DNA from: Bacteroidia bacterium
GTDB taxonomy: Bacteria; Bacteroidota; Bacteroidia; AKYH767-A; 2013-40CM-41-45
Assembly (NCBI GenBank): GCA_046330055.1
Contig: JAXLTM010000008.1
Location: 12,182 to 76,181 of the forward strand
Direction of reading: 5' to 3'
DNA length: 64,000 nt
In this document: one piece after another, positions 3,017-60,437 of the stretch
Position numbering within the stretch: position 1 is the stretch's first letter
Layout of the letters: every line of letters begins with the position of its first letter
Notes under the pieces: generated by a model
Seen by the model: only the letters and a program-made list of their open reading frames with translations
Database searches by the model: none
What the model was told of the DNA's origin: nothing
Made by a program: the position numbers and the translations under genes

Positions 3017-3163
3017 GATCAGAGATCAGTGATCAGTGATCAGTGATTAGTGATTAGTGATTAGTGATTGGTGATTATTGATTAGTGATTAGTGATTGGA
3101 AATTGGAAATTACTAACTACTGATTACTGATTACTAATTACTAATTACTAATTACTAATCACC
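3017..3163. repeat. Heptamer tandem-array hairpin: (GATCAGT/GATTAGT)x13, a short centre, then (TACTGAT/TACTAAT)x7
   Basis: Read directly. The left arm at 3017-3099 and right arm at 3111-3163 are complementary in several registers. It starts 13 nt after the ABC ATPase stop. Confidence 0.9.
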
Positions 3164-3244
3164 TATCCTTTTAAGCAATTCCCGGTCAGATATCATCACA
3201 ATTTTCTTTGCTAAAGGGTAAAAATTTGCTTAAATTCGGCCCAT

Positions 3245-5242
3245 ATGATGAAAAGAATCTCTGTCTTCTTTGCACTTTGGCTTACGACAATTATGTCATT
3301 CGGCCAAATGCTGGCTCCGGCAAAATGGACGTTTACAAAAACAGAAGAAAAAGACGGTGCTGCAACTCTGAAGTTCAACGTTAAACTTGATGAAGGGTGG
3401 CACCTGTACTCACAATTTACACCCGACGGCGGCCCGCTTCCGATGGTTTTTACATTTAACCCTTCTAAAGGCTACCAGCTTATAGGGAAGGTTACGGAAC
3501 CGAAGTATCACGAAGAGTACGATTCCACTTTCATGGTGAAAGTCTACTTATTTGAGAAGGAAGCAACTTTTACACAGAAAGTCAAACTCACCGGTGATGC
3601 TGTTGAGATCAAAGGGAAAATAGATTATCAGGTTTGTAAGGAGTCTTGCATTTTTCAGGATACAAGTTTCGCATTTACATTCGGCAAATCAACCGGAAGT
3701 ATTCAGCTCATCAATACTGTTCCGGGTGATACTGCTTCAGCTATACAAGTAGTTTCTCCTCCTGAAGATACGATTAAGCAAAATGCAAATTCGGGGTTGC
3801 TCGAAGAAGGATGCGGAACTACGAATGACAAACCGGACAACAAAACACAACGTACATTACTTACTATTTTCATTGCCGGAATGCTTGGGGGATTTCTTGC
3901 ACTGCTTACTCCGTGTGTGTTTCCAATGATTCCGATGACAGTGAGCTTTTTCACCAAGCGTAGCGGGAGTCGTGCCAAAGGAATCCGAAATGCGCTCATC
4001 TATGCATTGTCCATCATTGTCATATACGTAACACTCGGTTTCTTAGTCACCGTAACGTTAGGCTCGGATGCATTGAATGACATGTCGAGTAATGCTTTCT
4101 TCAATCTCTCCTTCTTTTTCATCTTCGTAATTTTTGCCATCAGTTTCTTCGGCGCATTCGAAATCACATTACCAAGTTCGTTCGTAAACAAAGCAGATGC
4201 TGCCAGTGATCGTGGCGGATTGCTTGGAATATTTTTCATGGCCTTTACGCTTTCACTCGTTTCATTCAGTTGCACCGGTCCGATCATTGGAACTTTACTG
4301 GTCGAAGCGGCGCACGGACAATCTTACCTTGGTCCGATTGCCGGAATGACAGGCTTTTCATTTGCACTGGCAATTCCGTTTGCTCTCTTTGCCATGTTCC
4401 CGGGCTGGCTGAATTCCCTGCCTAAATCAGGCGGCTGGCTTAATACGGTGAAAGTAACGTTGGGCTTTGTGGAACTGGCACTTGCAATGAAATTTTTATC
4501 GAACGTAGATCTTGCTTACCACTGGGGATTTCTCAAGAGGGAAATCTTTATTGCTATATGGATTACGATTGCCGTTGTGCTTGGATTTTATCTGCTCGGA
4601 AAAATCCGCCTATCACATGACAGTGATACGAATTACATTTCCATCGGCAGATTACTTTCGGCTCTCTTCTCATTCTCCTTTGCTGTATATCTCATTCCCG
4701 GTATCTGGGGAGCACCGTTAAAACTGATCAGCGGATTTCCTCCGCCGGAGTTTTACAAAGAATGGCAAACCGGAAAAGCTGAAGAATGTCCGCACGACCT
4801 GAATTGCTTTCATGATTACGACGAAGGAATGGCTTACGCCAAAGCGCAAGGCAAACCTGTAATGATTGATTTCACAGGCTGGGCCTGCGTGAATTGCCGG
4901 AAGATGGAAGAAAAAGTATGGAGCGATCCAAAAGTACTCAAGCATCTTCGTGAAAACTATGTCCTGATTTCACTTTATGTCGACGACAAAACCAAATTAC
5001 CTGAAAGTGAACAATACACTTCAACTTTCAGCGGCAGACGTATTGAAACCACAGGCAACAAGTGGAGCGAAAAACAAGCATCGGAATACAAAACCAATTC
5101 TCAACCATATTATGTCCTGCTTGACAACAAAGGAAAAATCCTCGCCGAACCGCGCGGATATACGCCGGACATTCCAACTTATAAAGATTTTCTGGAAGAG
5201 GGGTTGTGCAGGTTTGAGAAGAGAAAGCAATTAGCTAATTAG
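3245..5242 (+). CDS. dsbD: Thiol:disulfide interchange protein DsbD-like
   Basis: 665 aa. It has a signal peptide and an N-terminal DsbD-alpha-like domain. The central CcdA-type TM core carries LTPCVFPMIP. The C-terminal thioredoxin fold carries WACVNC. Confidence 0.85.
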   Translation: MMKRISVFFALWLTTIMSFGQMLAPAKWTFTKTEEKDGAATLKFNVKLDEGWHLYSQFTPDGGPLPMVFTFNPSKGYQLIGKVTEPKYHEEYDSTFMVKVYLFEKEATFTQKVKLTGDAVEIKGKIDYQVCKESCIFQDTSFAFTFGKSTGSIQLINTVPGDTASAIQVVSPPEDTIKQNANSGLLEEGCGTTNDKPDNKTQRTLLTIFIAGMLGGFLALLTPCVFPMIPMTVSFFTKRSGSRAKGIRNALIYALSIIVIYVTLGFLVTVTLGSDALNDMSSNAFFNLSFFFIFVIFAISFFGAFEITLPSSFVNKADAASDRGGLLGIFFMAFTLSLVSFSCTGPIIGTLLVEAAHGQSYLGPIAGMTGFSFALAIPFALFAMFPGWLNSLPKSGGWLNTVKVTLGFVELALAMKFLSNVDLAYHWGFLKREIFIAIWITIAVVLGFYLLGKIRLSHDSDTNYISIGRLLSALFSFSFAVYLIPGIWGAPLKLISGFPPPEFYKEWQTGKAEECPHDLNCFHDYDEGMAYAKAQGKPVMIDFTGWACVNCRKMEEKVWSDPKVLKHLRENYVLISLYVDDKTKLPESEQYTSTFSGRRIETTGNKWSEKQASEYKTNSQPYYVLLDNKGKILAEPRGYTPDIPTYKDFLEEGLCRFEKRKQLAN

Positions 5243-5255
5243 CTAATTAGCTAAT
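5229..5255. repeat. (TTAGCTAA)x3 palindromic octamer array
   Basis: The sequence aattagctaattagctaattagctaatt is fully self-complementary. The dsbD TAG stop (5240-5242) lies inside it. Confidence 0.9.
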
Positions 5256-5265
5256 TTAAAAAAAC

Positions 5266-5273
5266 TACCTTTG
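5266..5273 (+). promoter_or_regulatory. Candidate Bacteroidota -7 promoter box TACCTTTG
   Basis: Exact match to TAnnTTTG, 8 nt upstream of the ATG at 5282. Confidence 0.45.
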
Positions 5274-5281
5274 CGCCCGTT

Positions 5282-8057: not shown

Positions 8058-8086
8058 CTCCTACACATTAGTACCATAATCATTCA

Positions 8087-9042
8087 ATGAATAATTCATT
8101 TCTCAATTCGATTGAACTCATCAGCCTATTAAACAGGTGGAAAAAACAACTGATGATAGTGGCCGGAATCAGTTTGCTGGCTTCAATCATCTTTTTCATC
8201 GCTGATGTTCGCTTAAACGAAGTTCAAATCAACGGCTATTGTTTATCCTTCCAACCTTATTGCCTACCGACAGAGAGTGCAACTGAACAGATGTTGCAGA
8301 TATGTCAGTCGTCGACTATCCGCGACCAGATTATCCGCAGTTTTAACCTGTTTTTATGGTCACGACATTGATTCAACGAAGGATCGTGCCTACAAGACGA
8401 GCGTTTACAGGATGTACGATGAAAACATCAACATCAAAAAACAGAATATGAATCAATGGAAGTTACTGTTTACGACATCAGCCCCGACACGGTTATTATG
8501 ATTGACTCCATCATTCATTTTTTCAATCTGAAAGCTCGTCAACTACAGTCAGAAAAATCAATGGAAGTAATGGTGATCACCGGAAATCAACTCACTGCTG
8601 TAAAGCAGAGATGGATTCCGGCGGAAGATTTGTTACACAATTATCAGGTGAATTACGGAATTTTGGATTTCAAACAGCAATCCAAAGAAGCTACACGCGC
8701 TTATCTGCGCGGACTTTCAAACCCTGGTGCAAAGGCGAGCATTGAGGCTAAGGATATGATGAAAAATCTCCAGGACAAAGGTGCAGAAGTAAACTCACTC
8801 ACTGAACATCTCTGGCGTGTACGCGGCACCTACAACGATTTAAAGATCGCTTATGAAAATGCCGAACGCGATGTATTCAAGAAACTCACTGCATCTTTAA
8901 CGTCATCATTTTTCCGAACCTGCCGATAAAAAGCCTACCCAATCCGCTGGCTCATCGTTGTTATTTCAGTGTTATCACTGCTGATGGCATTCACATGATC
9001 ATTCTTGTTTTCTACACTAAGAAAGAAGTTCAAAAACAATAA
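8087..9042 (+). pseudogene. Paralog of the Wzz-like gene, multiply frameshifted
   Basis: Fragments at 8087-8371, 8277-8501 and 8456-8929, plus a tail to 9042, align piecewise with the 6948-8057 protein (LLNRWKKQLMIV..., KFKSTAIVYPS..., ...YPIRWLIVVISV) in alternating frames. Confidence 0.65.
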
Positions 9043-9043
9043 G

Positions 9044-10485
9044 GTGTTACCTGAAAAAATAGAATTACGCTGGTTTTACGGGCTGATCTTTGCCTTCCTT
9101 GGCACTACAGTTTTTTGTATTGCAAAAGAATGGTATTGGATTGCCGCGCTTCCCATTTTTCTGGGAATCGTCACCGCCATTTTCTTTTCACTCGACACCC
9201 ATTCTCTATTTCTTGTTGCTTTTACATCTCTTGCCATCGTTCTCAATGACAAATCGAGCGGACCGGCATTGAGTTTACCTACAGAACCGCTGTTATTCGA
9301 ATACTCCTCCTGTTTAGTTTCAAATTAATTTTTGAAGGAGGCTACGACAGGAGAATTCTTACTCACCCTATTTCCAAAGCAATTTATTTTATTCTCGGCT
9401 GGACGGTTGCCACAAGCTTTACAACACCTATCCGATCAGTCTGAAACACCTTCTCTCACAACTATGGTTCATTGTGCCTTCTTATTTTTTAGGCATCATG
9501 CTCTTTTAAGGAGAAAAAACATCAAGAGATTCATCTGGCTTTATCTGTTCATTCAATGGTCTGCATTTACACCATTACACGACATGCAATGAAACGCATG
9601 GACACAAAAAAGGCCGCCCACTGGGTAATGACACCATTCTACAATGACCATACAGCTTATGTTGCAGCCCTTGCTCTTTATCCCTCCGGTGATTTACCTC
9701 TGAGCAGATCATACGAATACATTCAAGGAGCGTACATTTTCGGGTCTGCTTTCATTCTGTTATTGCTGGCGCTCATTCTTTCGTAGCGCTCGAGCAGCAT
9801 GGCTGAGCCTTGTTCTTGCTCGGTCTTTTTTATCGTCTACCGCATGCGAATTAAATTTACTGGGTGTTGACGATGATTGCAGGTGCATCGATCGTTTTTC
9901 TTCAAGACAGCATTACTTGATGAAACTGAAAAGAACCGACAGGACTCTGCAACTGATTTCAATAAACACATTCAGTCGATTTCAAATATCTCTACCGATG
10001 CATCCAATCTGGAACGTATCAACAGATGGAATTGTGCCATCAGGATGTGGAAACAGAAACCTTTCTGGGGCTGGGGACCGGGAACCTATCAATTCAATTA
10101 CGCTCCGTTTCAGAAGTCAAGCGAAATGACCATCATCAGTACCAATGCCGGTGATATGGGAAATGCACATAGTGAATTCATCGGGCCATTGTCGGAACAA
10201 GGCGTTCTTGGAATGGCAGCCATGATTATACTTGTTGTAGTCGTTATCTATCGCGCGTCCATTATTTTCTCCCGTTCGAAAAACAAAAACACGCAGAGAA
10301 TTACGCTGGCTATTTTACTTGGCTTAGTGACTTACTTTATTCACGGTACGATGAACAACTTCCTTGATACCGACAAACTTGCCGTGCCAGTCTGGTCGTT
10401 CATTGGAATGATTGCCGCCATAGATATTTACATTTACGGCGAAGAGAAAAAGACTCCTCCTGAAATTAATGGAATAAACAACTGA
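9044..10485 (+). pseudogene. O-antigen ligase (Wzy_C) family protein, multiply frameshifted
   Basis: The C-terminal piece 9877-10485 has the ligase-type motif RWNCAIRMWKQKPFWGWGPGTYQF...NAHSEF. The upstream TM segments are scattered over at least 4 frame changes (9005-9328, 9332-9592, 9556-9786). Confidence 0.6.
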
Positions 10486-12784: not shown

Positions 12785-13915
12785 ATGAAGATTGCCGTAA
12801 ATACCCGGATGCTGATCAAGGGCAAAATGGAGGGCATTGGCTACTTTACCCTTGAGAGCATGAAACGCATCGTTTTGAGTCATCCCGAGCATGAATTTAC
12901 ATTCATCTTTGACCGTCCGTTTGACCCCTCTTTTATTTTTGCACCGAATGTGAAAGGCGTAGTGATTCCTCCACCTGCCCGACATCCTGTGCTCTGGTTT
13001 ATCTGGATGGAGATTAGTCTGCGTCTGTTTTTCAAGAAGAACAAATTTGATCTCTTCATAGGAACAGACGGCTACTTGCCGCTTAGTCTATCCTGCAAGT
13101 CAATCGCCGTCATTCACGACATCAATTTTGAGCACTACCCTCAGGATCTTCCATTCTTCAATCGAATCTATTATCGGAAATTTTTCCCTGCCTTTGCGCG
13201 TAAAGCAGATAAAATCATCGCTGTTTCGGAGTTCACTCGTCAGGACATCATTGAAAAATACAAAATTGCTCCTTCGAAAATTTCTGTCGCTTACAACGGC
13301 GTCTCTGAAGAATTCAAGCCGTTGGATGAAGCGATGATTCGTGAGACAAGAAATAAATTTTCACGAGGAAAAGCTTACTTCCTTTTCATCGGGGCTATTC
13401 ATCAGAGAAAGAATATTGCGAATCTGCTTCGTGCTTACGAGCAATTCCGGAAGGAGAATCCCGATTCAGAAATACTCCTTCTCTTTGCCGGCGCCAAACG
13501 CTGGTGGACGGAAGAGATGGAATCTGTTTTTCAGTCGATGGAATTTAAGAATGACATTATTTTCACAGGCAGAGTTTCCTTCGAAGACCTTGCTCAAATT
13601 ACGGCTTCGGCATTTGCAGTTACCTATGTTTCCACTTTCGAAGGTTTCGGTATTCCGATTGTTGAAGGCATGAAAGCCGGTGTGCCTGTGATTACATCGA
13701 ATGTCACTTCAATGCCGGAAGTTGCAGGCAATGCCGCTTTACTTTGCGATCCGTTTTCAGTGGAAAGCATTGCAGGTGCGATGAAGAAAATGGCGACCGA
13801 TGAAAATCTCAGGAGAGAACTAATCACCAAAGGCCTGAAACGCGCACAGGATTTTAGTTGGGAAGAACGGCGGAAGCGGTATGGAAGGGAATCAATTCTG
13901 AATTCTGAATTCTGA
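12785..13915 (+). CDS. Glycosyltransferase, GT4/group 1 family
   Basis: Start taken at MKIAVNTRML. The C-terminal GT1 motifs are EGFGIPIVEGMKAGVPVITS. The ORF-track start at 12557 overlaps lpxD and was rejected. Confidence 0.8.
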   Translation: MKIAVNTRMLIKGKMEGIGYFTLESMKRIVLSHPEHEFTFIFDRPFDPSFIFAPNVKGVVIPPPARHPVLWFIWMEISLRLFFKKNKFDLFIGTDGYLPLSLSCKSIAVIHDINFEHYPQDLPFFNRIYYRKFFPAFARKADKIIAVSEFTRQDIIEKYKIAPSKISVAYNGVSEEFKPLDEAMIRETRNKFSRGKAYFLFIGAIHQRKNIANLLRAYEQFRKENPDSEILLLFAGAKRWWTEEMESVFQSMEFKNDIIFTGRVSFEDLAQITASAFAVTYVSTFEGFGIPIVEGMKAGVPVITSNVTSMPEVAGNAALLCDPFSVESIAGAMKKMATDENLRRELITKGLKRAQDFSWEERRKRYGRESILNSEF

Positions 13916-13926
13916 ATTCTGAAATT
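13894..13926. repeat. (AATTCTG)x4 heptamer array
   Basis: Read directly. The glycosyltransferase TGA stop (13913-13915) lies inside the array, and the protein ends ...LNSEF. Confidence 0.9.
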
Positions 13927-14006
13927 ATTAAACAAGATGGCAAATAAATGTGACGTCTTTAGCGTGAGAAAAAATCTGCGAAAGTCAAATGTAATTTGTC
14001 AGCAAG

Positions 14007-14093
14007 CTCTGCGGAAACTCCTTTCCGTGATTTCATTTTTAATATCGGTGCTTGAAGCTTGCCTCGCCGTGGCAGGTGGGAAAAAGACACCAT
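14007..14093. repeat. Interspersed repeat family B, copy 1 (CTCTGCGGAAACTCCTTTCCGTGATTTCA ... GTGGGAAAAAGACACCAT)
   Basis: Shares its start and end blocks with 61465-61535. Flanking DNA (13965-14150) holds two further degenerate half-copies (CGCGAAAGTCAA...CTCTGCGRGAAAC). Confidence 0.6.
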
Positions 14094-14171
14094 AAGATTT
14101 TCCGCGAAAGTCAATTTTTTGTCCGCGCTCTCTGCGAGAAACAAATTTAAACCCTCTTTCAGCTTAGCTCA

Positions 14172-14202
14172 AATATTCAATTTTCAATATTCAATATTCA
14201 AT
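14172..14202. repeat. (AATATTC)n array including one AATTTTC variant unit
   Basis: This 31-mer is identical to 16469-16499 and is the reverse complement of the array type at 14930-14954. Confidence 0.9.
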
Positions 14203-14252
14203 CTCATTTCCCCCTTTGAAATCCCAATTCGCTCATTTCCTTCACTTCATCA

Positions 14253-14846
14253 ATGCTGAAGCAATTTCACCAAAAACAATTATTAGAATGCGGCGTCAAT
14301 GAAGCCGGGCGGGAGTCTTGCCGGACCCGTATTTACGTACAGTGATTTTGCCGCCAGGTTTAAGAACAAACATCTGAATGATTCCAAACAATTGTCGGAG
14401 CGGTTCGCGATGAATTACGTCCGCTGATTGAGGAGAAAGCCCTTGCCTAGGCAGTAGGTGTTGCCACACATGAGGAAATTGACCACATAAATATTCTCAA
14501 TGCTTCTTTTCTTGCCATGCACCGTGCCATTGCAGCTTTGAAAATTGAACCCGAGCTGCTGCTTATTGATGGAAATCGTTTCAAAAAATATTCAATGATC
14601 AATCACGAATGCATTGTCGGAGGCGACGGCATTTACCTTTCAATCGCTGCTGCAGTAATTTTGTGAACCCACCTGCGACGAATACATGTATCAACTCCAC
14701 GAACAATTTCCTCATATACGGCTGGAACAAAAACAAAGGCTACGGCACTTCCATTCTGTACCGCCATGAAAGAATTCGGCCTCTCCTTTTCATATGAAGT
14801 TTTCCAGCTTAAGGCGAAGCAGATGGAGATGGAGTTTGGGGGCTGA
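14253..14846 (+). pseudogene. rnhB: Ribonuclease HII, multiply frameshifted
   Basis: RNase HII motifs are readable but spread over all three frames: [81 protein letters not shown]. Confidence 0.75.
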
Positions 14847-14883
14847 GGTTGCCGGTTAGATAGTTGGCTGATTGCTGGTTTTG

Positions 14884-14954
14884 GATTGAAGATTGAATTA
14901 GAAGATTGAATTGAAGATTGAATTGAAGATTGAATATTGAATATTGAATATTTT
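14884..14954. repeat. (GAAGATTGAATT)n grading into a (ATTGAAT)n array
   Basis: Read directly. The 3' part is the reverse complement of the AATATTC arrays. Confidence 0.9.
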
Positions 14955-15011
14955 GGGATTTTAATTACTTTCGATAATTAACCTGTTTGACTGAATTATA
15001 CCCGATCAAAT

Positions 15012-15067
15012 AAGTATCCAAGCATCCAAGTATCTAAGCATCCAAGTATCCAAGCAACAAAGCAACC
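15012..15067. repeat. (AAGYATCC)x5 plus (AAGCAACM)x2 octamer array
   Basis: Read directly. It abuts the left end of the IS element. Confidence 0.9.
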
Positions 15068-15074
15068 TGTCCGT

Positions 15075-16454
15075 GCCTGAAATAGGTTGACCAAAAATCG
15101 ACCTATGAAAACAAAGAACGAAAAAATTGCTCTCTACGCCAACAGCGAATTTTCAGTCTGGAAATTCGTCGTCAAACGGTCCGTGACATTGAATCCGGAA
15201 GTGTTCTGACAGGCCAAACGCAGATGAACTGCAGGTATCTCAACAAGCAATTTATGGATGGATTCATAAATTTAGTCGATATTTAAAGAAAAAATCGACG
15301 TATGGTTATTCGAGATATGCTGAAGCCTATAAAAGCCGGGAGCTTGAAAAGAAGATCAAAGAGCTGGAAGCCATCATTGGCAAGCAAATGGAAATTGATC
15401 TGCTCAATAAGTTAATGACCGGGAATACTGAGTACAAGACTGACTTAAAAAAAAGTTATCAAAGAATCGCTCGAATGGTTCCGACTCTTCAAAGGATAAA
15501 TCATACTTACAAGATGAAGGATCTCTATTTGATTGTAGGGTTAACCAAGCAATCCCCTTGTTAAAAATATCGCCGGAGAAACAATACATGAGAATGGTGA
15601 GAGAGCAGGTCATTGATGCATGTCAGGTAATCCGAAAAGACCACAAACGGATAAGGATTTGCCGTAAGATGTACGTTATGGCTCAAGATTCGATCCGGTT
15701 GGGCGAGAGATATTGCAGGCAGATAGGATTTGATAGTGGTTTTAAAGTAAAGATAAAACGAAACACTATCAAGACGACCTGGTCACAAAGGGTTGAAGTG
15801 TATCCGAATTTACTGGAGGGGTCCAATCATTAATGGAATAAATCAAGCATGGCAATCGGACAATTTTTACCAACACCAGCAGGACACAAAAGTACTACGG
15901 TGTCAGTATTATCGATATTTATTCCGCTATTTTACTGTCATGGCACTTCCCGTTCGCTTGAAGCAATACAGACCGGAAGGGCGGTATTGAAGCGATTGCA
16001 AAAAGGCGAAAAAATCAATCTGTGAAAGGATATTCATACTGACAGGGGTATCAGTACATTAGTGACTTAGTAAAAGAATGAGTTGGAGAGCATAAGCTAG
16101 AACCAGAAGTATGTGTAAGTTGCCACAGGAAAATGCCTATGTTGAGCGAGTACAAAACACTCAAGTATGAACCTTTTCAGAAGGAACTAACAGAAGTAGT
16201 TAAAAGTCAAATAAAATCCATTAGATATCTTTATAATCACCAAAGACTATGAAGGTGGGTATACTTTTAACGCCTGCTCAATACGAACAAAGTATCAACA
16301 ATTTACCAGTGAAAGAACGCCCCAAATTAAGGATATTTAAATGGAAACATCCGATACTAACAGAATCGCCTGTTATTAACAAAAAAGAAAAAAGTAGCAA
16401 AAAAGAAAAAAACTATAGTAATATCAACCATTGAAAAGTCAACCTATTTCAGGC
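15075..16454 (+). mobile_element. IS3-family insertion sequence with a decayed transposase
   Basis: - 17-bp perfect terminal inverted repeats: GCCTGAAATAGGTTGAC at 15075-15091 and its complement at 16438-16454.
- orfA-like start at 15105, and a slippery A8G run at 15447-15455.
- The orfB N-terminal part is open to 15833 (…IRKDHKRI…GFKVKIKRN…YPNLLEG).
- The catalytic part (INQAWQSD.., DRG.QY.., YNHQR) is broken by several frameshifts. Confidence 0.8.
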
Positions 16455-16464
16455 TAGGTCAACC

Positions 16465-16499
16465 ATTCAATATTCAATTTTCAATATTCAATATTCAAT
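16465..16499. repeat. (AATATTC)n array, direct copy of 14172-14202
   Basis: The 31 nt at 16469-16499 are identical to 14172-14202. It starts 10 nt after the IS right end. Confidence 0.9.
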
Positions 16500-16660
16500 T
16501 AAATACTTACATGGCTTACAATATCTCACCCCTGATACCGTTACCATAACACACTCTTCCATGTAGCCCTCCTCTTTTCCCCGATTTTAACAGCAGTACT
16601 TTATAATTTGTATGAACTGCCGGGAAGGTGTCGATCCCCCTTAAGTAAATTGCTATCCTT

Positions 16661-44214: not shown

Positions 44215-44228
44215 AGAAGCGGAAAGTC

Positions 44229-44257
44229 AAATTAGCTAATTAGCTAATTAGCTAATC
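44229..44257. repeat. (TTAGCTAA)x3 array
   Basis: Read directly. Same unit as 5229-5255. Confidence 0.9.
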
Positions 44258-44262
44258 TAAAT

Positions 44263-45148: not shown

Positions 45149-45257
45149 AGAAGGAAAGGAAGAAAATCGGCTGTCCTGAAAACGCAGGGGTGTATCGGGA
45201 ATTCCGCACGAAAAATCATATTTTCATATGATTTTGCAGCTTTTTTGTTTACAAAAA
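45149..45257. repeat. 110-bp direct repeat, copy 2
   Basis: See copy 1. Confidence 0.9.
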
Positions 45258-45293
45258 TCCATCTATATTGCCGCATAAACGTGACCGCCAGAT

Positions 45294-48330: not shown

Positions 48331-48337
48331 TAAATTA

Positions 48338-48430
48338 TAAGTAAGTGGTAAGTAGTAAGTGGTAAGTGACAAACAATTATTAGCACTAAACACTTTCTAC
48401 TTACTACTCACTAATTACTAATTACTCACC
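48338..48430. repeat. Hairpin-type pair of arrays: (GTAAGTR)x4 ... (CTTACTA/CTAATTA)x4
   Basis: Read directly. The right arm ends 2 nt before the SET-gene ATG. Confidence 0.85.
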
Positions 48431-50548: not shown

Positions 50549-50582
50549 AATTCAGAATTCAGAATTCAGAATTCAGAATTTA
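50549..50582. repeat. (AATTCAG)x4 array
   Basis: Read directly. Confidence 0.9.
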
Positions 50583-52588: not shown

Positions 52589-52760
52589 TTCAGCGGGTGG
52601 CATTTCATTTTTTTTACCACAAGTGCACAAGGAACACAGAGAGGCACAAGGAATTCAGAATTATGAATTCAGAATTCAGAATTTAAACATATCTGCCTCT
52701 CTTCGTGAATCTCAGTGCTCTTTTGTGGCCTTTGTGGTAAAAAAAGATTCCTTGTAATGA
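52589..52760. repeat. Palindromic composite element family A, copy 1
   Basis: TTTTTTACCACAAGTGCACAAGGAACACAGAG, then a central (GAATTCA)n, then CTCAGTGC..CTTTGTGGTAAAAAAAGATTCCTTGTAAT. The outer blocks are mutually complementary. Confidence 0.85.
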
Positions 52761-52827: not shown

Positions 52828-54230
52828 TTAGAGGATGATCAATTTCACAAGCCGACCAGTTAAAATGAATGCTGACCTGATAAATTCTTTTGGAAGATTC
52901 TTTGTACTTATTTCGTATTGAAGTATGATGAAGTTTCTGAACTGGAAATCATCCTGCCTTCCATATCGGTTATATCAACCCTTCCCTGCTCAGCCCGACA
53001 TGATTGTACTGATTGAAACACTTCCCGGTAGACGGGTTCGGGAAAATTTTAAAAGAAAACTGCGCTGATCAGATTCCGAAATACTTTGACCGAACACCAT
53101 GATGTTAAATCAGGCCCCAATTGAAAATTCGGATGATTCGGAATACTGTGATAATAAATTCTTGTAGTTACATACCGTTGTTGAAAATGACAACTGACTC
53201 CGGGTAAATCCGAAATTCAATCCGATGAAAGGAATGCGTACTGCTTCGTCGTCATGTATATTTTTCCGTCACGAGCTAAGGCCATATAGAAAATTGAGTA
53301 GACAACCAACTATCTTCAAAAGCTCCATCCCAAATGCCTATCAAGGTTTTCGACTGAGACAAATTTGCCACCTGAGTGTCGTACTGGTAAATATAATTTG
53401 TATTTGAGAGATATAATACTGGAATTAGAGAAAAGCAATTCCGTAAGCACCAATTATTGTATCTACGTAAGGAACATATCTTGCAGAACTGAATGCCCGG
53501 TGCACCGATCGAAGTCAAATAGCTGCAAGCCAACTATATCGAAACTGACATACTGATGTCCATCAGAGAAAAACAAGAGTAACCAAGAACGCTCGTATTT
53601 CCAATCTGTTGTCTGCTTACTAACTGAATCCTGAATCAGAAATGAGAAAACGGTTCGCTTTGGTCCATGTTGTTCAGCAATTACCAGCCACCAGTCATGG
53701 CCGTTGCCATGCTACACGCGGATAATTGTCCCGGCTGAATTGAATCATTGAAGACAGAAACATTTTTAATTGTTACGGCCCCAAGACCGAATTCAAACGC
53801 ATATCCACTTTTGCAAAAGTTAAACGCACGATGCACTGCCTGTCCACTCACTCGGATTGTAAAAAACATAGTATTGATTTGTATTCCGTGATCGGGAATA
53901 ATAATGGATTCCTGAGGTATAGCTTCCGTCATTTGAAGGATCACAACCATCGAGACAAATTAAACTATCACCATTTTGCATAATATGATTGGAAGAATCA
54001 CCAATCTTTGCTCCATTGATTGCAAAAAAACCTTCCATCCGGCGACGAAATGGAAGTGGCACATCCTGCAAAATAAATTCTGTCGATTGAAGCAGTATCC
54101 GGCGTTGAATACAAAATCCATGTTTGATCCGCCATACCTCGGTACCGAATAATTACTGTAACTCATTACCCAATGGTTTTCAAATTGCCCAAATACAGGA
54201 ACTGAGTCAGAAGAAATAAACAAGTACAAG
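52828..54230 (-). pseudogene. Heavily decayed T9SS-cargo gene remnant
   Basis: Only short minus-strand ORF fragments remain. A CTD-like end (..LPKEFIRSAFILTGRLVKLIIL*) stops at 52828-52830. The upstream boundary is approximate. Confidence 0.35.
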
Positions 54231-54235
54231 ATTTC

Positions 54236-55680
54236 TCATTGAATCACCAGAAATTTATGAATATAATTTCCCGCTTCATCTTCAATCAATATTAAATACA
54301 AACCATTTGTTTAAATGACAATTCCTGAGTCATTGAAAATGTCGACTTATTAAACGAGTAAGTGTTTTCCACGCGACCATTCAGGTCAATAGTAGTGACT
54401 GATACTTTTCCGTAGTGCGGAGAATTAATGGTCGTAGGCATTTCAAAATGATTTCAACACTAATAAAAACATTGCCGGAATTTTCGATAGCATTGGTAGT
54501 AAAAATATCGTATCGTCTGTTGTTGCAATACAAGGATAGTAACCCGAATAAAGTATATCTGAAAATATATATTGCATAGTGAGAGTAAATGGAAAGCGCC
54601 AACGGTTGAATACGAATTGTAGGCGATGGGACCTATACTCTGAAAAGGAACTTCGGAAATGTCCAGCGCCAACTTAACTCTTTCGGGAAATGTCCGGTTT
54701 GAAAAGTAATTTGTTGATTTAAATAAGCCGGATCCGTATGATAAAATGAGGGAGTGTCGGATTGTCCAATTCCGAATGAATAGAATCCATTCCATTGGCA
54801 TTGTAAACAACCATATCGACTGTTTGAGAAGCTTTGGAACTGTAAGTATAGTAAGGACTGAATTCAGAAACGGTTCCACCGGAAAATACCAACGTACTGA
54901 ATCAGGAGCGCCAATGAGGTATTCAGAAAATGACTGTTAAGCCATCGCAATAAGTATAACTTTAAAGGAAGCCTGAGGCGGATCGGGCGTGTGACTGTTT
55001 ACGATTACGGAATAATCTTCCATATCATTTACATGATACCAATCCTGACCCGATTAAAAAATGGGACGTTCCGATAGTAGTGCAAACTACTCTTAATCTT
55101 AATGGCACCCTGAAGAGACTATCTTTGACATGAGGAACAACTATCCGAAACGAATGGTTTGTTAACGCACTGCTCTCACCAACAATTTCTTCCTCTGAAA
55201 TCGCCCATCGGCATTTGCATCCAGAAAAACAGTTATGTATTCCTTATCTAAGGTATCGTTAGAAGCCTGATAAACTGACCTTCATTCAGGATTACCTGAT
55301 CGCTGCGCGTAGTCATCAACTACACAATCTCCGTAAGCCGTTCCGGAGGATTTATTATACCATTCAATTGGAGTTAAAAATAATTCCCCAAAGTATTACA
55401 ATGCGTTTTATAATTGAACACAGGATGAGTTATGATTGATATCTGTACAGTATCAGTAAAGGAATCAACAGGAAGGCCCCAGAATTGAGGTAACGATAAT
55501 ATTTAATAAAGTAAGTTCCGGAATTGAGGTATTGATGAATCATATATGTAGAAAGCCTCCCCCATCACCGAAATTCGCCTTCTTCTCATAGAATCCGGTT
55601 GTTGTGTCATTGATGATTACGTAATCCTTTAAACTCAAAAACGGATTATTGAATGCAATAGCCTTCCCGTGGTGAAACAT
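54236..55680 (-). pseudogene. Heavily decayed T9SS-cargo gene remnant
   Basis: A CTD end is readable (..IDLNGRVENTYSF.. / ..GLYLILIEDEAGNYIHKFLVIQ*) with its stop at 54236-54238. The upstream coding sequence is fragmented over all frames, and the 5' boundary is approximate. Confidence 0.4.
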
Positions 55681-55935
55681 ATCATCACAATGAAAACAAA
55701 TCTTATAAATACATTATTGCGCATTCCCGGAAGATGGTATGGGTATTGAATTCGAATTTGAATTGAAATCGAAATCTGAAATTTTACATTTATGCAATAT
55801 ATTTAGATTTTCTCAGAAAGCCAGCTTTTCCTTGATCCATGCATTATTGTGATCTTGCAGCAAAAAGAGTGAAATTTAATCAGTCAGGGCTTTATTCAAT
55901 ATGATTGTGAGTGCTTTAACACAGCGTAGATTTAT

Positions 55936-56117
55936 TTCAGTGGGCGTACATTTTCTTTTTTTACCACAAGTGCACAAGGAACACAGAGGGAATTCTGAAT
56001 TATATTTCAGAAATTCTGAATTCAGAATTCAGAATTCAGAATTTTAAGCATATCCAACTTTTCGGAACCTCTGTGCAACTCGTGCCCTTGTGGTAAAAAA
56101 GAATTCCTTGTAATTAG
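55936..56117. repeat. Palindromic composite element family A, copy 2
   Basis: Same terminal blocks and orientation as 52589-52760, with a longer central (GAATTCW)n. Confidence 0.85.
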
Positions 56118-56291
56118 CTTCCCAAAACCCAAACAGTACCCGAAAAAATAAAACAACAACCCCACGACCTCTCGCCCCAGCAATAGTGACCTCTCGGTGG
56201 CCAATCTCTTTGTCAAATCAACTAAGCTCTTTTAAGAATTCAGAATTCAGAATTTCTTTGGCTTTGCCTTCTGACCTTTAACTTACTTATG

Positions 56292-56360
56292 TAGCCCGTG
56301 CGGAATCGAACCCGCGTTTCCTCCGTGAAAGGGATGTCCTAACCCCTAGACGAACGGGCC
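56292..56360 (-). tRNA. tRNA-Glu(UUC)-like sequence, apparently degenerate (69 nt)
   Basis: - The reverse complement reads GGCCCGT TC GTCT AGGGGTTA GGAC A TCC CTTTCAC GGAGG AAAC GCGGG TTCGATT CCGC ACGGGCT A.
- The acceptor stem, D arm, CTTTCAC loop and T loop fit tRNA-Glu.
- The 5' strand of the anticodon stem is 2 nt short, and the T stem lacks one C.
- No CCA is encoded. Confidence 0.5.
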
Positions 56361-56498
56361 ATCTTTTGGGGACGGCAAGGTAGTGTTTTTGATTAAAAAA
56401 CCAACTTTGTTGAGAAAAATATGCGTTTTGTTAGGGATTGAAAAAGAGGAGATTGTGCGGAAAAACTCGTTTCTTTCGCCCTTCCGCCACCTCGCCTG

Positions 56499-58164
56499 CT
56501 ATTGCTTTAGCAATCGCTTCCATAATTGACCGGAATCCCCGGTGACTTCCACGGTATAAAGTCCCGAATCCAGCCCTGAGCCCCTAACTGAATCTGACCG
56601 GCATTCTCTACTCTTTCCTGCATCACCACTCGACCGGTGGCATCATACACTTTCAACATCGACCCGGTAAATGCTTCCGGCAAACGAACCGTGAATTGTT
56701 GTGAAACCGGATTCGGATATAAAGTGAGCTCCTTCGAACCAATCTCAGGAACTTTGTTGATCTGCGGTACTACAATGAACTGCCCCATCATACCGTCGTC
56801 TTCGTGCATGAGGATATGACAATGGTACATGTATGACATCATGGAATCAGCATAGTCTTCAAACTTGGTGATGAATCGCACGGTTTGCTGCGGACCAACC
56901 ATGACAACATCTTTCGGCCCCGCTTCCTGAGGTGGAGCAGTTACTCCATCACGATCGAGTACATAGAATTGTACATCGTGAATATGGAATGGATGTGCTA
57001 CCATCGTTACGTTGGAGATCGTCCACACTTCAATGTTGTCGAGCGGAATCGTATAATCAATACGATTCATGTCAAATAAATTTCCGTTGAAATAAAAGGG
57101 CCCGTCCATCGACATCATATTCTGCGCTGTAATCGTAATTGCTCTCGACATCATCGATTGCGATTCCAACCAAGGTGTATTGATGGCAAGTGTTGTCGGG
57201 ATAGTCATCACCGGATTCACAGTCGGAACGGTAACATTGAATTGAAGAATATTGAAGTCGATACCGTTGATCGGAGAATACATTGCTGTATCCATTCCCG
57301 GCATCGGTGTTCCGCCCTGAATTCCGAAACCGAATTCGCTGGCGTAACTCATCAGATAAAGTGTCTGACCAATCTCAGCCGAAAAATCAACCAACACCTC
57401 CGCTCTTTCGCCCGGTGATAAACGGATGCGTGTTACCTGCACCGGTGCATTGAGCAAACCACCATCGTTACCGATGACATAAAATGTTTTATTGCCGGTT
57501 AATCCGAAATTGTAATTTCTTTCCTGTGAGGCATTCAATAAACGCAGACGAACAACCTGCCCGGGAACATCAAGCGATGGATTCTCCACACCATTAACGA
57601 ACATTGTACTATCGTGCATTCCTCTCCAGAGAATCTGATTATCGGAATCAAATTGTTGTGACTGGACAACGATCGGAAAATCATCGATACCATATCTTCT
57701 CGGCAAATTCAACGTCGCTTCCTGAGAGTCGCGAACGATGATAAGTCCGGCTGCACCACGCATTGCCTGCTGTCCGGTTTTCATATGTGTATGCGGATGA
57801 TACCAGAATGTAGAAGCATTGTTTTTCACTTCAAACATCGGACTCCATGTATCGCCACTGAGAATGACCGTATGCGGACCACCATCTGCCATAGCCGGTA
57901 CATGCAAACCATGCCAGTGAACGGTAGTGGTATCCGGTAACGTGTTCGTGACATTCATCGTCATCATATCACCGCTGATAGAGCTTGATCGTCGGGCCCA
58001 GATAGGAATACTGATTGAAAGCGATTCGTATAAGTTTCGTCCCGGCAAAACTGAACACTGTCAGGATGCATGGTCAGATTAATAGTTGTCCCTGTCAGTG
58101 TATCAGGAATCGGAATCAGGTTTTGTGAATAACATTTGCCGGCAATAAGAGCTAATGCCAGCAT
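56499..58164 (-). pseudogene. Multicopper oxidase with a T9SS C-terminal domain, at least 3 frameshifts
   Basis: The core ORF 56507-58048 has the copper sites HWHG, HPHTH, HPFHIH and HCHILMHED. The N-terminal signal part (57964-58164) is in another frame. The CTD end (..LDSGLYTVEVTGDSGQLWKRLLKQ*) is in a third frame and stops at 56499-56501. Confidence 0.7.
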
Positions 58165-58228
58165 CAGAAGGAGATTCTCATGTGCGGTTTTTCTAACTAT
58201 AAGATTATATTATTGTGTTGAATGTTAA

Positions 58229-58268: not shown

Positions 58269-58282
58269 AACTGCCCTCCAAA

Positions 58283-59161
58283 TTAGTCCACGATCACCCG
58301 GAAAACACGGGCACCTTCGGAAGATTCAACTCTGAAGTAATAATTTCCTGCAGGGAGCGAACGAACATCAATCTGATTCACCATGCCCCTTTCAAGTTGC
58401 TTCGTAGCGCGTACCATTCGGGACAGGTTGTCATAAATCGTCAGCGAAAACTCACCGTTCTGAATGCTGGAAAGATCAATGCGAACTTCATCTTTTACAG
58501 GATTCGGATAAAGCATTAGGCTGCTTAATCCATTCACTTCTGAAATTCCGCTGGCAGTACCGGTGAATGCAAGATTATCGACATACAGATAATCATTTGC
58601 TGCGCCGCCGCTACTTCCGCTTGCTGACATGCTAATTAAGCAAGTATCAGGATTACCACCATCCGAATAAGTCAGAGGAATGGTAAAGGCCGTCCAGCTC
58701 ATTGCCATACCTGATAAATCGTAATAGGCAAAACCAACTACAACCTGCGACTGAGAAGTAGCATCCCAGCGTGTAAGCAACACGTTAATATATCCCTGAT
58801 CCGTACCAAAGATCATATGCTGAAAATTACCCGTAAGGTTTGCCGGGCGCTGGGAAAATGGAAAACCGGTAGTTGGAGTTCCTGATCCGCCTGCATCACT
58901 GCTGATGGCGATTCCCGGAACAATACCAAGTCCTGTAGCCGACAAAGTAGTAAGCTTCAGATACGAGCTTCCAGGACTACCGGGCGTTCCCTTGGTACAT
59001 GTGAAAACACTTAATGGTGCAGTTATATTATTCATTGTCCACCATGAATCAGGGTTGTTATATGTTCCCATATTTGTCCAGCTTTCAAATCCTCCATTCG
59101 GAATTTGTGCGAACAATGACAGACCAACAAATTGCAAGACTATGAGTAGAGAGTATTTCAT
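58283..59161 (-). CDS. T9SS-sorted secreted protein
   Basis: Start taken at MKYSLLIVLQFVGLSLFAQ (signal peptide). The C-terminal type A sorting domain is LMLYPNPVKDEVRI...LPAGNYYFRVES. Confidence 0.75.
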   Translation of the reverse strand: MKYSLLIVLQFVGLSLFAQIPNGGFESWTNMGTYNNPDSWWTMNNITAPLSVFTCTKGTPGSPGSSYLKLTTLSATGLGIVPGIAISSDAGGSGTPTTGFPFSQRPANLTGNFQHMIFGTDQGYINVLLTRWDATSQSQVVVGFAYYDLSGMAMSWTAFTIPLTYSDGGNPDTCLISMSASGSSGGAANDYLYVDNLAFTGTASGISEVNGLSSLMLYPNPVKDEVRIDLSSIQNGEFSLTIYDNLSRMVRATKQLERGMVNQIDVRSLPAGNYYFRVESSEGARVFRVIVD

Positions 59162-59262
59162 AGGTTTTAAGGTTTGAGTTAGTGAATATACTATTTTGAT
59201 CTCAGGCTTCCAAAGGTACGTATTTGCCACCGGTTGAAGTGTGACTAAAATCACTGAGCCCG

Positions 59263-59327
59263 GTTGCTTGGTTGCTTGGTTGCTTGGTTGCTTGGTTGCT
59301 TAGTTGCTTGGTTGCTTAGTTTCTTGG
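59263..59327. repeat. (GTTGCTTR)x8 octamer array
   Basis: Read directly. It is the complement of the (AAGCAACY) array at 24091-24162. Confidence 0.9.
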
Positions 59328-59355
59328 CAATTCAAATATAAGTCATTTAAGCACT

Positions 59356-59415
59356 CTGATCGCTGATCGCTGTTAACCGATTTCTAATCACTAATTACTA
59401 GTTACTAATTACTAC
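59356..59415. repeat. (CTGATCG)x2 followed by a (CTAATYA/CTAGTTA)x4 array
   Basis: Read directly. It ends 8 nt before the methyltransferase ATG. Confidence 0.85.
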
Positions 59416-59423
59416 CTTTCGCC

Positions 59424-60020
59424 ATGCAAAACTTCTGGAACGACCGCTACTCATCTACTTCCGATTTCATTTACGGAAAGGAGCCAAATGAATTTTTTAA
59501 GTCACAAATTGATCTTTTAAAGCCCGGGAAAATCCTTTTGCCTTGTGATGGCGAAGGGAGAAATGGCGTATATGCTGCAAGAATTGGTTGGGATGTATTC
59601 GCCTTTGACCAGAGTATGGAAGGTCAAAAAAAGGCGATGTCGCTGGCGAAAGAATATAGCGTCGGACTTAACTATGAGATCGCCGATGCGCTTGCAATCA
59701 CTTATCTGGAAAATTCTTTCGATGCCATCGCATTAATTTTTTCTCATCTCCCTACAGCGGTAAGAGAAAAATTTCATGCAAAAGCAATATCATGGTTAAA
59801 ACCCGGCGGAACATTAATTCTTGAAGCATACAATCCGCTTCAGTTAAATAATAACACGGGAGGACCGAAAGACGTTTCTATGTTATACACTCCTGAATTA
59901 ATGAAAGCCGATTTCGGCCGTCTCTCCAAACTCGACATCAAAACCGAACACCTCGCGATCAACGAAGGAGAATTCCACAGCGGAATTTCAGACGTAATCA
60001 GAGTCATCGGCGTAAAATGA
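59424..60020 (+). CDS. Class I SAM-dependent methyltransferase
   Basis: 198 aa with a glycine-rich SAM motif region (ILLPCDGEGRNGVYAA) and an acidic loop (FAFDQS). Confidence 0.75.
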   Translation: MQNFWNDRYSSTSDFIYGKEPNEFFKSQIDLLKPGKILLPCDGEGRNGVYAARIGWDVFAFDQSMEGQKKAMSLAKEYSVGLNYEIADALAITYLENSFDAIALIFSHLPTAVREKFHAKAISWLKPGGTLILEAYNPLQLNNNTGGPKDVSMLYTPELMKADFGRLSKLDIKTEHLAINEGEFHSGISDVIRVIGVK

Positions 60021-60125
60021 TTCACCAATTTAGCAATACTTGAATGTGTAAGGTTCTGTGATAATATATTTTCGGAATTGGTCATCTACAATCTACAAAT
60101 GTATGGATTGTACATTGCCTTGATT

Positions 60126-60159
60126 TTTCTTTCTTTTTGCTTCGCCAAAAAGAAAGAAA
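60126..60159. other. Perfect 14-bp homopurine/homopyrimidine inverted repeat (TTTCTTTCTTTTTG-CTTCGC-CAAAAAGAAAGAAA)
   Basis: Read directly. There is no adjacent T-run, so it is not called a terminator. Confidence 0.8.
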
Positions 60160-60356
60160 CAAAGAAAAAGGCGACCACGGCAGCCTCCTTCTCGGCCTAC
60201 AAATTTACACAGCTTTCATATTTACTAACATTTGTTCTTTTAATATTCTTCTTCCTTCGATTCGTCACCGAGAAGGAGGCCGCACGCGCGTGGACGGCCC
60301 CCCACAACATTCTGATTCCTGTATACATTCTTCAAATTTTGGTGTTTCGTGATGGA

Positions 60357-60437
60357 TTTTCAAATCCACAAAACCTAAACGTTCAAAGTATAAATCCCAC
60401 ATAGTACTACTTACTACTTACTAATTACTAATTACTG
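60357..60437. repeat. Family C copy 2 (60357-60396) followed by a (TACTACT/TACTAAT)x5 array (60403-60437)
   Basis: Read directly. Confidence 0.85.

Follow-up and report, generated by a model that had tools for sequence, protein, structure and literature searches.

Intergenic heptamer and octamer tandem arrays adjoining stop codons in an uncultured Bacteroidia clade

What generates the short tandem arrays that recur between the genes of an uncultured Bacteroidia (Bacteroidota) lineage, and why do they lie where they do? We addressed these questions in a 64-kb window, by which we mean the whole stretch of DNA analysed here. An earlier reading made from the letters only (hereafter the sequence-only reading) assigned the gene content to Bacteroidota, and this is borne out by type IX secretion system (T9SS) C-terminal sorting domains (Por_Secre_tail) on several window proteins, by a CHU_C-type immunoglobulin-like (Ig) domain in one protein, and by the Bacteroidota/Bacteroidia metagenome-assembled genome labels carried by homologues of its DsbD protein; GCA_016720655.1 is one relative. 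Judging from sample and accession names, the source environment is likely to be activated sludge or freshwater. In the reading that we favour, and to which we give an even chance of being correct, the arrays are slippage-driven microsatellites resembling the short tandemly repeated repetitive (STRR) sequences of cyanobacteria; selection confines them to the space between a stop codon and the next promoter, and the subset that forms hairpins probably acts as 3′-end RNA structures.

The arrays are abundant and of two unit lengths only. Our own strict scan (at least three near-perfect copies, periods 4–12, with 20 shuffled sequences as control) detected 18 arrays in the window, 14 of period 7 and 4 of period 8, and none at periods 4–6 or 9–12; the shuffles yielded no strict arrays at periods 6–12, and on average 0.55 arrays each at period 4 and 0.05 at period 5. 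A permissive set, for which rows from Tandem Repeats Finder (TRF) were merged, comprised 27 arrays with a minimum of 2.7 copies (observed range 2.9–13.7), all with 7- or 8-bp units, which span 1,198 bp, equal to 1.9% of the window and, by our own sum of gap lengths, ~17% of its clearly intergenic DNA. All 27 lie outside open reading frames (ORFs; P ~1e-19 at a generous non-coding fraction of 20%). TRF found no array of three or more copies within the window ORFs, and period-7 rows in coding DNA reached at most 2.9 copies at 75–80% match. The arrays share with long simple sequence repeats (SSRs) the head-to-tail reiteration of 5–11-nt units beyond chance, as well as the mainly intergenic location of those whose unit is not a multiple of three. 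The sequence-only reading had counted more than 20 arrays, had seen none inside coding sequence, and had proposed a tandem-repeat search and a tabulation against genes and gene ends; run on the window, they upheld the arrays and their absence from coding DNA, with every array that it had located present and at most a few bases displaced.

Could the arrays be artefacts of the assembly from which the window derives? The suspicion is reasonable, as three patches of the window (8190–9930, 13860–15200 and 53894–58210, at roughly 8.2–9.9, 13.9–15.1 and 53.9–58.2 kb) differ from short-read contigs by dozens of 1–3-base indels, with 83 gap openings in 15 kb and 79 in 4.4 kb. These patches break the ORFs of Polysacc_synt, Wzy_C, RNase HII and two large minus-strand genes at ~52.8–55.8 kb, so that several apparent long non-coding stretches are broken genes; the pattern resembles errors of an unpolished long-read assembly more than it does pseudogenes. 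Another ORF probably broken by an indel is that of the DUF6770 gene, which is split at 47559/47632. The arrays themselves, however, are found again, mostly without a single base changed, in contigs of the same organism that exact-protein look-up retrieved from at least eight other samples and that come from independent MEGAHIT, SPAdes and Logan assemblies. Because these independent assemblies match and strains differ by whole units, the arrays are real, and an artefactual origin, which the sequence-only reading had named as a way to be proven wrong, can be regarded as refuted. Many of the short-read contigs stop inside arrays, so short-read assemblies of these organisms fragment at them. Nor are the arrays restricted to the window: contig L001 opens with a (CCAAGCAA)n array 5.6 kb upstream of it, and contig L286 changes to a different locus within a (GGTTGCTT)n array, right after the stop codon of a 485-residue gene. 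Whether the latter switch reflects a real rearrangement or chimeric assembly, it shows that a further array copy exists elsewhere in the genome, and the two arrays indirectly support many loci genome-wide.

Differences between strains at arrays come in whole units. Such indels affect 4 of about 16 arrays covered by other strains, with most arrays identical across the strains sampled. Relative to the window, strain L001 has three more units at 13924 (where L003 has the window's count), a 93–96%-identical strain has two more at 22990, and strains L087 and L285 have one more each at 23952 and 59262, respectively. This comparison of contigs provides the unit-number polymorphism that the earlier reading had suggested looking for, and it is the copy-number variation characteristic of SSRs.

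Placement relative to genes is strongly biased. Arrays occupy five of five convergent gaps, about 10 of 16 co-directional gaps and one of seven divergent gaps (gaps holding a gene 3′ end vs divergent gaps, Fisher P = 0.023). When distances were read by us from array and gene coordinates, at least 13 arrays were found to start in the interval from −21 to +16 nt around the upstream stop codon, the array often supplying the stop itself. The distance to the next start codon is 25–285 nt, and the DNA that arrays occupy typically reaches to about 25–100 nt short of that start. The same stop-codon abutment is seen in the relatives L097, L282 and L283. Arrays had been said to occur at both the 3′ and the 5′ ends of genes; this understates a clear 3′ bias. 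Likewise, the description of intergenic DNA as “saturated”, with nearly every gap above about 60 bp carrying an array, was too strong, since about 14 of the 27 gaps of at least 57 bp, or about half, hold one.

Just past the array, a motif, AAAAAAACTACCTTTGCG, is kept both in the window (5262–5281) and in a relative with 79% DsbD identity (L097, 8757–8780). Within this motif lies TAccTTTG, which we take to match the Bacteroidota −7 promoter consensus TAnnTTTG. As the motif follows the array, it suggests that arrays end where the promoter of the next gene begins.

Folding divides the arrays into two groups. We folded 20 array loci and compared them with shuffles, counting z ≤ −4 as strong. Seven loci fold strongly (z −4.3 to −13.2, −14 to −73 kcal/mol), namely 3014–3163, 19296–19372, 22970–23048, 23910–23956, 43676–43822, 44226–44260 and 48336–48430, in agreement with the earlier prediction of hairpins from complementary arm pairs. 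About ten are essentially structureless, among them 15008–15068, 23857–23895, 59376–59418, 60401–60440 and the locus at 56231. T-runs follow the hairpins at 22970, 23910 and 50545, weakly that at 3014, and are absent at 19296, 43676 and 48336. In the 93–96%-identical strain, the 22970 hairpin has two extra units on one arm and three substitutions on the other and is nevertheless retained, with a stability of −33.8 kcal/mol vs −27.0 kcal/mol in the window. Generic scans were uninformative for Bacteroidota: terminator-like sites were modestly above shuffles, with the array at 23914 alone flagged, and a sigma-70 promoter scan of the window gave sites at or below shuffle expectation.

The units are not a random sample of heptamers. 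Of 22 heptamer arrays, 16 consist of a 6-bp palindrome (GAATTC, TAATTA, AATATT or TGATCA) plus one spacer base, against an expectation of 10.9%; with each motif family counted once, the figure is four of eight (P = 0.007). Among nine octamer arrays, four repeat TTAGCTAA, a palindrome of 8 bp. The other heptamers can be lined up so that each differs from the next by one base (GATCAGT, GATTAGT, AATTAGT, AAGTAGT, AAGTGGT), and gradients of unit variants run within arrays, for instance from GATCAGT to GATTAGT, or from AACCAGCA through ACTAAGCA to ACCAAGCA. In total, at least 13 motif families occur in the 64 kb, a few of which recur at unlinked loci.

The individual hairpins illustrate how the units are deployed. 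In this catalogue, bounds come from TRF, and the arrays are also plain to see in the raw sequence. At the stop codon of an ABC ATPase gene (2252–3004) begins a ~60-bp hairpin (3014–3163; −73.2 kcal/mol, z −13.2). Its left arm, (GATCAGT)n grading into (GTGATTA)n (3002–3097, ~13.7 units), is identical in five independent contigs, and its right arm, (TGATTAC/TAATTAC)n (3108–3159, 7.4 units), pairs with the left via 10 G-U pairs on the plus (sense) strand. At 19301–19371, (GTAATTA)4 followed by (CTAATTA)~6 makes a complete hairpin (−28.4 kcal/mol, z −8.6) that occupies a whole convergent gap, the stop codons of both genes lying within the arrays. The (TTAGTRA)n and (CTAATTA/CTGATCA)n arm pair at 22974–23043 begins at the stop of a response-regulator gene and has a T-run after it. 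A second convergent gap is occupied by a hairpin (−44.4 kcal/mol, z −6.4) that begins at the stop of a DUF58 gene with its left arm (AATTAGCT/AATTGGAY)n (43680–43725), continues through (TCTACTAA)3.4 in the loop region (43746–43772), and closes with its right arm (AATTAGCT/AATTGGCT)n (43775–43818), which overlaps the stop of msrB (43809–44189, minus strand). In a further convergent gap, (GTAAGTR)4 at 48341–48368 pairs with (ACTTACT/ACTAATT)5 at 48392–48426 (−27.9 kcal/mol, z −4.3). Self-complementary units form the hairpins of (GAATTCW)5.6 at 23914–23952 (−15.7 kcal/mol, z −4.4), which is followed by T7, and of (AATTAGCT)3.4 at 44230–44256 (−14 kcal/mol, z −5.7), which lies between a DDE transposase fragment and the msrB start.

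Other arrays hug gene ends in simpler forms. The palindromic octamer recurs as (AATTAGCT)3.5 at 5229–5256, where it encodes the final codons and the stop of DsbD (3245–5242). (GAATTCT)4.3 at 13894–13923 overlaps the stop of a glycosyltransferase gene, (GAATTCA)4.6 at 50549–50580 lies 16 nt past the stop of a gene for a T9SS-tailed protein and is followed by a T-run, and (AATATTC)4.4 at 14172–14202 lies upstream of RNase HII, one of the genes that are broken in the window. Among the direct arrays, (AAGYATCC)6.6 at 15012–15064 is unstructured (minimum free energy −1, z 0.1), as are (AGTAAGT)4.6 at 23861–23892 (minimum free energy 0) and (TACTACT/TACTAAT)4.6 at 60405–60436, the last of these 1 nt past a stop codon. 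(AACCAGMA)~6 spans 24046–24092, and (AAGCAACY)8.2 at 24096–24161 overlaps the stop of a minus-strand gene (24157–24552). The complement of this latter array, (GGTTGCTT)8.2 at 59262–59327, lies in a divergent (promoter) gap, and 8 nt separate it from the start called for the gene at 58283–59254; it is within this array that contig L286 changes locus. (CTAATYA)5 at 59380–59414, 10 nt upstream of a methyltransferase start, is a single partnerless arm without structure. (GAATTCA)2.9 at 56235–56254 lies ~38 nt past the 3′ end of a minus-strand tRNA (56292–56360). This tRNA, at 36.2 bits, was the sole Rfam match in the window at the gathering threshold; ARAGORN found no tRNA in the window, and indel errors in the window may be behind its miss.

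How widely are the arrays distributed? Their strict density, ~281 per Mb in the window, compares with 3.5 per Mb across the 1.42 Mb of 80 further DsbD loci from Bacteroidota (at most 61% DsbD identity among the matches listed), an over-representation relative to related genomes. Per 10 kb, the window has 2.8 strict arrays, L097 (79% DsbD identity) 3.8, L282 (72%) 1.4, L283 (73%) 0.9 and L284 (70%) 0.45; L101 (72%) and L100 (67%) have none in 22 kb each, and the 80-locus background has 0.035. On these densities, the trait is a clade-level one that is patchy within the clade. Motifs are shared between species in part: the window has ATTGAAG in common with the 79% relative and GGTAAGT in common with L282, and TCTTAGTG and GTTGCGG are confined to the 79% relative. 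Gene order in the DsbD region is conserved, but array content is not. Between the ABC ATPase and DsbD genes, the window has 240 bp with a 60-bp hairpin, and relatives have an array-free 57–93 bp. Downstream of DsbD, the window and the 79% relative each have an array hairpin, built from different units, and this gap appears to have been colonised independently in the two species; no strong hairpin was found in this gap in the array-free relatives.

Beyond the clade, (GAATTCW) arrays of at least four units were found in at least 120 metagenome contigs (L103–L222; 32–70% GC). Among the matches listed, these are mostly uniform direct arrays, many beside arrays that are one-mutation neighbours. AATGCAG, AATTCCG, AATCCAG and GCCAGAA are among the neighbouring motifs, and some of these contigs also carry CCCCAGT-type (STRR1-like) arrays. 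Crude ORF calling, which is unreliable in high-GC DNA, placed 44 of the (GAATTCW)n arrays in the 120 contigs inside ORFs. In viral contigs, GAATTCW, TAATTAS and GATTACW gave 4, 26 and 29 matches, respectively. Given these viral counts, and a metagenome scan that had no control pattern, we found no evidence that GAATTCW is a universally favoured motif. The GATTACW viral matches fall mostly in one family of ~60%-GC phage contigs (IMG/VR, L253–L281) with head-tail connector and tail-adaptor genes (head-tail connector, Gp77 adaptor and tail S). Most gaps of the structural module in this family hold (CAGTAAT/CAGTGAT)n paired with (ACTGACC/ACTGATT)n, with up to 14 arrays in 9 kb (for example L263, 1–9130); the hairpins have z scores of −3.6 to −8.3, and the loop AAAGGCAAAA is common to several of them. 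Hairpins built from arrays thus occur outside this Bacteroidia clade as well, and finding them in phages, whose genomes are compact, speaks mildly for their being of use. Heptamer arrays also occur in a further Bacteroidota genome, that of the cultured flavobacterium Ichthyenterobacterium magnum DSM 26283 (L045), where near-perfect (TTCTCTA)n arrays of ~15 and ~18 units lie at 997–1102 and 4065–4192, within 22 kb.

Taken together, a model for the arrays emerges. Hepta- and octanucleotide microsatellites of the STRR or long-SSR type would have multiplied in one uncultured Bacteroidia clade. Replication slippage would be their generator, as indicated by whole-unit gains and losses and by runs of one-mutation variant units. 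Purifying selection would act as a filter: it would clear arrays from coding DNA, where 7 and 8 are not multiples of three and most units carry stop codons, and also from promoter and 5′-leader DNA. The arrays would then pile up downstream of genes because no other free space is left by selection. About 40% of the arrays have self-complementary units (a 6-bp palindrome plus a spacer, or TTAGCTAA) or inverted arm pairs, and these would form 15–60-bp AU-rich hairpins directly past stop codons. The likeliest role of such hairpins is at the level of the transcript, in termination, in insulation against read-through or in protection of the 3′ end by a stem-loop; their terminator-like position, the T-runs at some of them, and the retention of the 22970 hairpin through changes in both arms point in this direction. 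Since both arms are periodic, the gain or loss of a unit could be accommodated by pairing in a shifted register. Self-complementarity may give units an advantage in that a slipped-out strand can fold on itself, as hairpin-forming microsatellites suggest by analogy. For the unstructured arrays, the most likely reading is that the same bias towards slippage produces them and that they have no function.

Several observations weigh against this model. Slippage alone explains neither the restriction to 7- and 8-bp units nor the recurrence of motifs at unlinked loci. The stems are AT-rich, and a T-run follows just three to four of eight hairpins. Folding energies of the sense and antisense strands show no consistent asymmetry; the 3014 hairpin favours the sense strand (−73 vs −37 kcal/mol), and others favour antisense or neither. 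Structureless arrays (15008, 23857, 59376, 60401, 56231) also adjoin stop codons, so that hairpin function cannot account for the placement, and a terminator role cannot cover all arrays when about half lack secondary structure, a limit that the sequence-only reading had correctly foreseen. Finally, the convergent gap that holds the (AGTAAGT)n and (GAATTCA)n arrays contains, directly upstream of them, a conventional terminator-like stem-loop at 23828–23861 (CCCCATCC-TTCG-GGATGGGG; GC-rich stem 23828–23847, T6 at 23856–23861, with the first array beginning right after the T-run). With such a stem-loop and T-run upstream, the arrays are dispensable for termination there.

A purely neutral account would take these last points further: a quirk of replication or repair in the lineage would favour slippage of 7–8 nt, the hairpin arrays would be as functionless as the others, and arm pairs would derive from older hairpins or from intrastrand template switching. 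We consider this unlikely, though a serious contender. That structureless arrays adjoin stop codons just as hairpin arrays do, and that some arrays lie beyond a conventional terminator, fits it well, as do the turnover of motifs and positions between the window species and the 79% relative and the two relatives that have neither arrays nor strong hairpins at orthologous gaps; polymerase-linked slippage of heptamers was proposed by Mrazek (2007), as relayed in PMC4679880 and PMC4692102. Neutrality sits poorly, however, with the strong enrichment of units for self-complementarity, with the 22970 hairpin having been not only kept but strengthened through multiple changes on both arms, with the post-DsbD hairpin being present in two species from different motifs, and with compact phages carrying such hairpins in most structural-module gaps, where junk DNA is unexpected. 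At the opposite pole, tandem-armed hairpins could constitute a distinct class of self-adjusting 3′-end RNA structure, its stem length changing in unit steps and its periodic arms pairing anew in any register (a tunable terminator, insulator or RNase III target), which would be used independently by this clade and by the high-GC phages with (CAGTAAT)n/(ACTGACC)n hairpins; in that case, CAGT/ACTG-type heptamers would recur across Bacteroidota, phages, cyanobacteria and Beggiatoaceae on account of a molecular interaction common to them, and not by chance. This we hold to be rather improbable.

Two further readings, and some discarded ones, concern what the motifs themselves might do. Arrays could be cis-regulatory platforms on DNA or RNA for a sequence-specific factor, as proposed for the TAACTGA repeats of Beggiatoaceae, or phase-variation switches that alter promoter-gene spacing. 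The small motif vocabulary that recurs at unlinked loci is in keeping with a binding platform, GATCAGT and GATTACT are of the same CAGT/ACTG type as the phage and TAACTGA arrays, and strains differ by one unit in the 59262 array, which lies 8 nt from a called start. We nonetheless find this quite improbable: arrays occur in just one of the seven divergent promoter gaps, the motifs of a sister species differ at the same gap, most arrays are identical across sampled strains, no candidate binding protein was identified, and at least 13 motif families are too many for a single factor to be plausible. Phase-variable SSRs lie in promoters, 5′ untranslated regions or reading frames, and the divergent gap at 59255–59423 is the only position here that fits. 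Very improbable, too, is a mobile-element reading, in which small non-autonomous elements resembling miniature inverted-repeat transposable elements (MITEs) or repetitive extragenic palindromes (REPs) would constitute the arrays or have given rise to them, and would spread the repeats from locus to locus. Recurrence of the same motifs at many unlinked loci, two ~175-bp palindromic copies with a (GAATTCW)n centre, the conserved loop of the phage hairpins, and the frequent stopping of short-read contigs inside arrays, as at dispersed repeats, would suit such an origin. Yet BLAST of the array loci revealed no similarity past the repeat units, length and arm composition differ at every locus, the simple arrays have no evident terminal repeats or target duplications, and strain differences are whole-unit steps rather than presence or absence of an element. 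Lacking the shared conserved sequence, terminal inverted repeats and target duplication that define MITEs and REPs, the simple arrays were rejected as mobile elements for want of shared flanks. We also rejected a restriction-site decoy role, as GAATTC, TAATTA, AATATT and TGATCA are not avoided outside arrays (observed/expected 0.75–0.94; GAATTC occurs 56 times).

The two ~175-bp palindromes stand apart from the simple arrays. Copy one is a ~172-bp imperfect palindrome at 52589–52760 (−49.9 kcal/mol) with (GAATTCW)4.7 at its centre (52651–52683); copy two, at 55936–56117 (−64.9 kcal/mol), has (GAATTCW)7.7 at its centre (55990–56043). They are the two copies seen, are 74% identical to each other, and fold strongly. 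Their outer arms comprise TTTTTTTACCACAAGTGCACAAGGAACACAGAG and a complement ending in GTGGTAAAAAAA, and conservation extends past the palindrome into TTCAGYGGG on one side and TTCCTTGTAAT on the other. Neither palindrome had an Rfam match. They could be MITE/REP-like elements; more broadly, a small mobile element or an RNA gene could account for them.

Insertion sequences (ISs) and duplications also touch the array loci. One hairpin is split by an IS: its arms (14917–14952 and 16465–16504, 92–100% complementary) are built from (GATTGAA/ATTGAAT)n at 14884–14952 on the left and (ATTCAAT)5 at 16465–16499 on the right, and between them lies an IS at 15068–16461 with 24-nt terminal inverted repeats (15068–15091 and 16438–16461). 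The (AAGYATCC)n array lies just left of the IS terminal repeat. Contigs L001 and L003 end just inside the IS, and L001 calls an HTH_28 gene there. Near the (AATTAGCT)n array at 44230, a minus-strand DDE transposase fragment (44420–45046) lies within the segment 44374–45148. This IS fragment is apparently absent in L095, in which 45149–45314 is joined to 44373 and below; a ~110-nt stretch at the junction matches both sides, and the fragment would be a polymorphic insertion. Strain L285 (4422–4837), compared with the window at 58210, carries ~355 extra bases between the genes for a multicopper oxidase and a T9SS-tailed protein. The extra segment is 87% identical to the region of a 108-residue gene in the window (60048–60396), a duplicated-segment polymorphism. 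Within the ORF 61618–63999+, a 219-bp (73-residue) tandem repeat of ~2.2 copies at 75–79% identity (63157–63662) represents repeated CHU_C-associated Ig-like domains.

Why do these arrays matter? Reports that heptanucleotide SSRs are in excess between bacterial genes go back to 1990 (STRR) and 2007 (Mrazek), with no function or mechanism established, and this clade offers testable traits in its stop-codon abutment, its division into hairpin and unstructured arrays, its palindromic units, and its close relatives with and without arrays. With array-free relatives in the clade, the cause of the arrays is testable. In density, ~280–420 arrays per Mb is high against the survey of Subirana and Messeguer (2019; PMC6749651), in which densities above 4 satellites per Mb were found in just 18 bacterial species among those covered, a yardstick that rests on different detection criteria.

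Among known systems, the closest are the STRRs of heterocystous cyanobacteria (Calothrix, Nostoc, Anabaena) and the 5–11-bp long SSRs of Mrazek, and the STRR-like character that the sequence-only reading had attributed to the arrays holds: these are 7–8-bp tandem repeats in non-coding DNA. Tandem 7-nt units and several motif families per genome are common to all. According to PMC4679880 and PMC4692102, heptanucleotide SSRs are the most over-represented class of long SSR in many bacteria (Mrazek 2007), and the known repeats share with ours the many intergenic loci, absence from genes, length variation between relatives, and slippage as the proposed origin with no established function. The window differs in its Bacteroidota host, in its 8-nt units beside 7-nt ones, in its AT-rich and mostly palindromic units, and in arrays that are largely inverted arm pairs or self-complementary and typically adjoin stop codons. 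The motifs of STRR1–3, as described by Mazel in 1990, reportedly read CCCCAGT, TTGGTCA and CAACAGT. The window motif GATCAGT shares a CAGT core with the first and the last of these. With this core alone in common, and with the host a Bacteroidota member, the arrays fall outside the cyanobacterial STRRs in the strict sense.

Heptamer arrays have precedents nearer to hand. MacGregor (2015; PMC4679880) reported TAACTGA arrays in marine Beggiatoaceae, some cyanobacteria and five Bacteroidetes, so the earlier statement that no equivalent is described in Bacteroidota fails; in Gramella forsetii and Aequorivita sublithincola, long TAACTGA arrays stand alongside other heptamer repeats (PMC4679880). 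These are likewise intergenic direct arrays of heptamers with a sporadic phylogeny that includes Bacteroidetes (PMC4679880). In contrast to the window, they have one dominant motif, which is not among the at least 13 window families, and in Beggiatoaceae and Flexibacter they lie a few nucleotides upstream of start codons in forward orientation rather than at gene 3′ ends. The GGGAATC and GGGGAYT heptamer SSRs of Xanthomonas and Nostoc, ~180 intergenic arrays per genome (Rehm et al. 2015; PMC4692102), resemble the window arrays in varying in length and sequence at the same gap between close relatives and in forming some inverted stem-loop pairs; they are G-rich quadruplex formers, whereas the window arrays are AT-rich and lack G-runs.

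With intrinsic terminators and REPs or bacterial interspersed mosaic elements, the window hairpins share a position just past stop codons, a bidirectional form between convergent genes and, in some cases, T-runs; they differ in their AT-rich 15–60-bp stems, tandem units and absence of a family-wide consensus, and half of the arrays have no hairpin. The heptanucleotide repeats that control hmw expression in Haemophilus influenzae exemplify the SSRs of contingency loci. Such SSRs also show polymorphism in the number of 7-nt units near genes, but at few loci per genome and within promoters, 5′ untranslated regions and reading frames, whereas the window arrays occur at hundreds per Mb and mostly downstream of genes. 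Set against all of these systems, the less familiar features here are the co-occurrence of 7- and 8-nt units, the palindromic units, the arm pairs and the abutment on stop codons.

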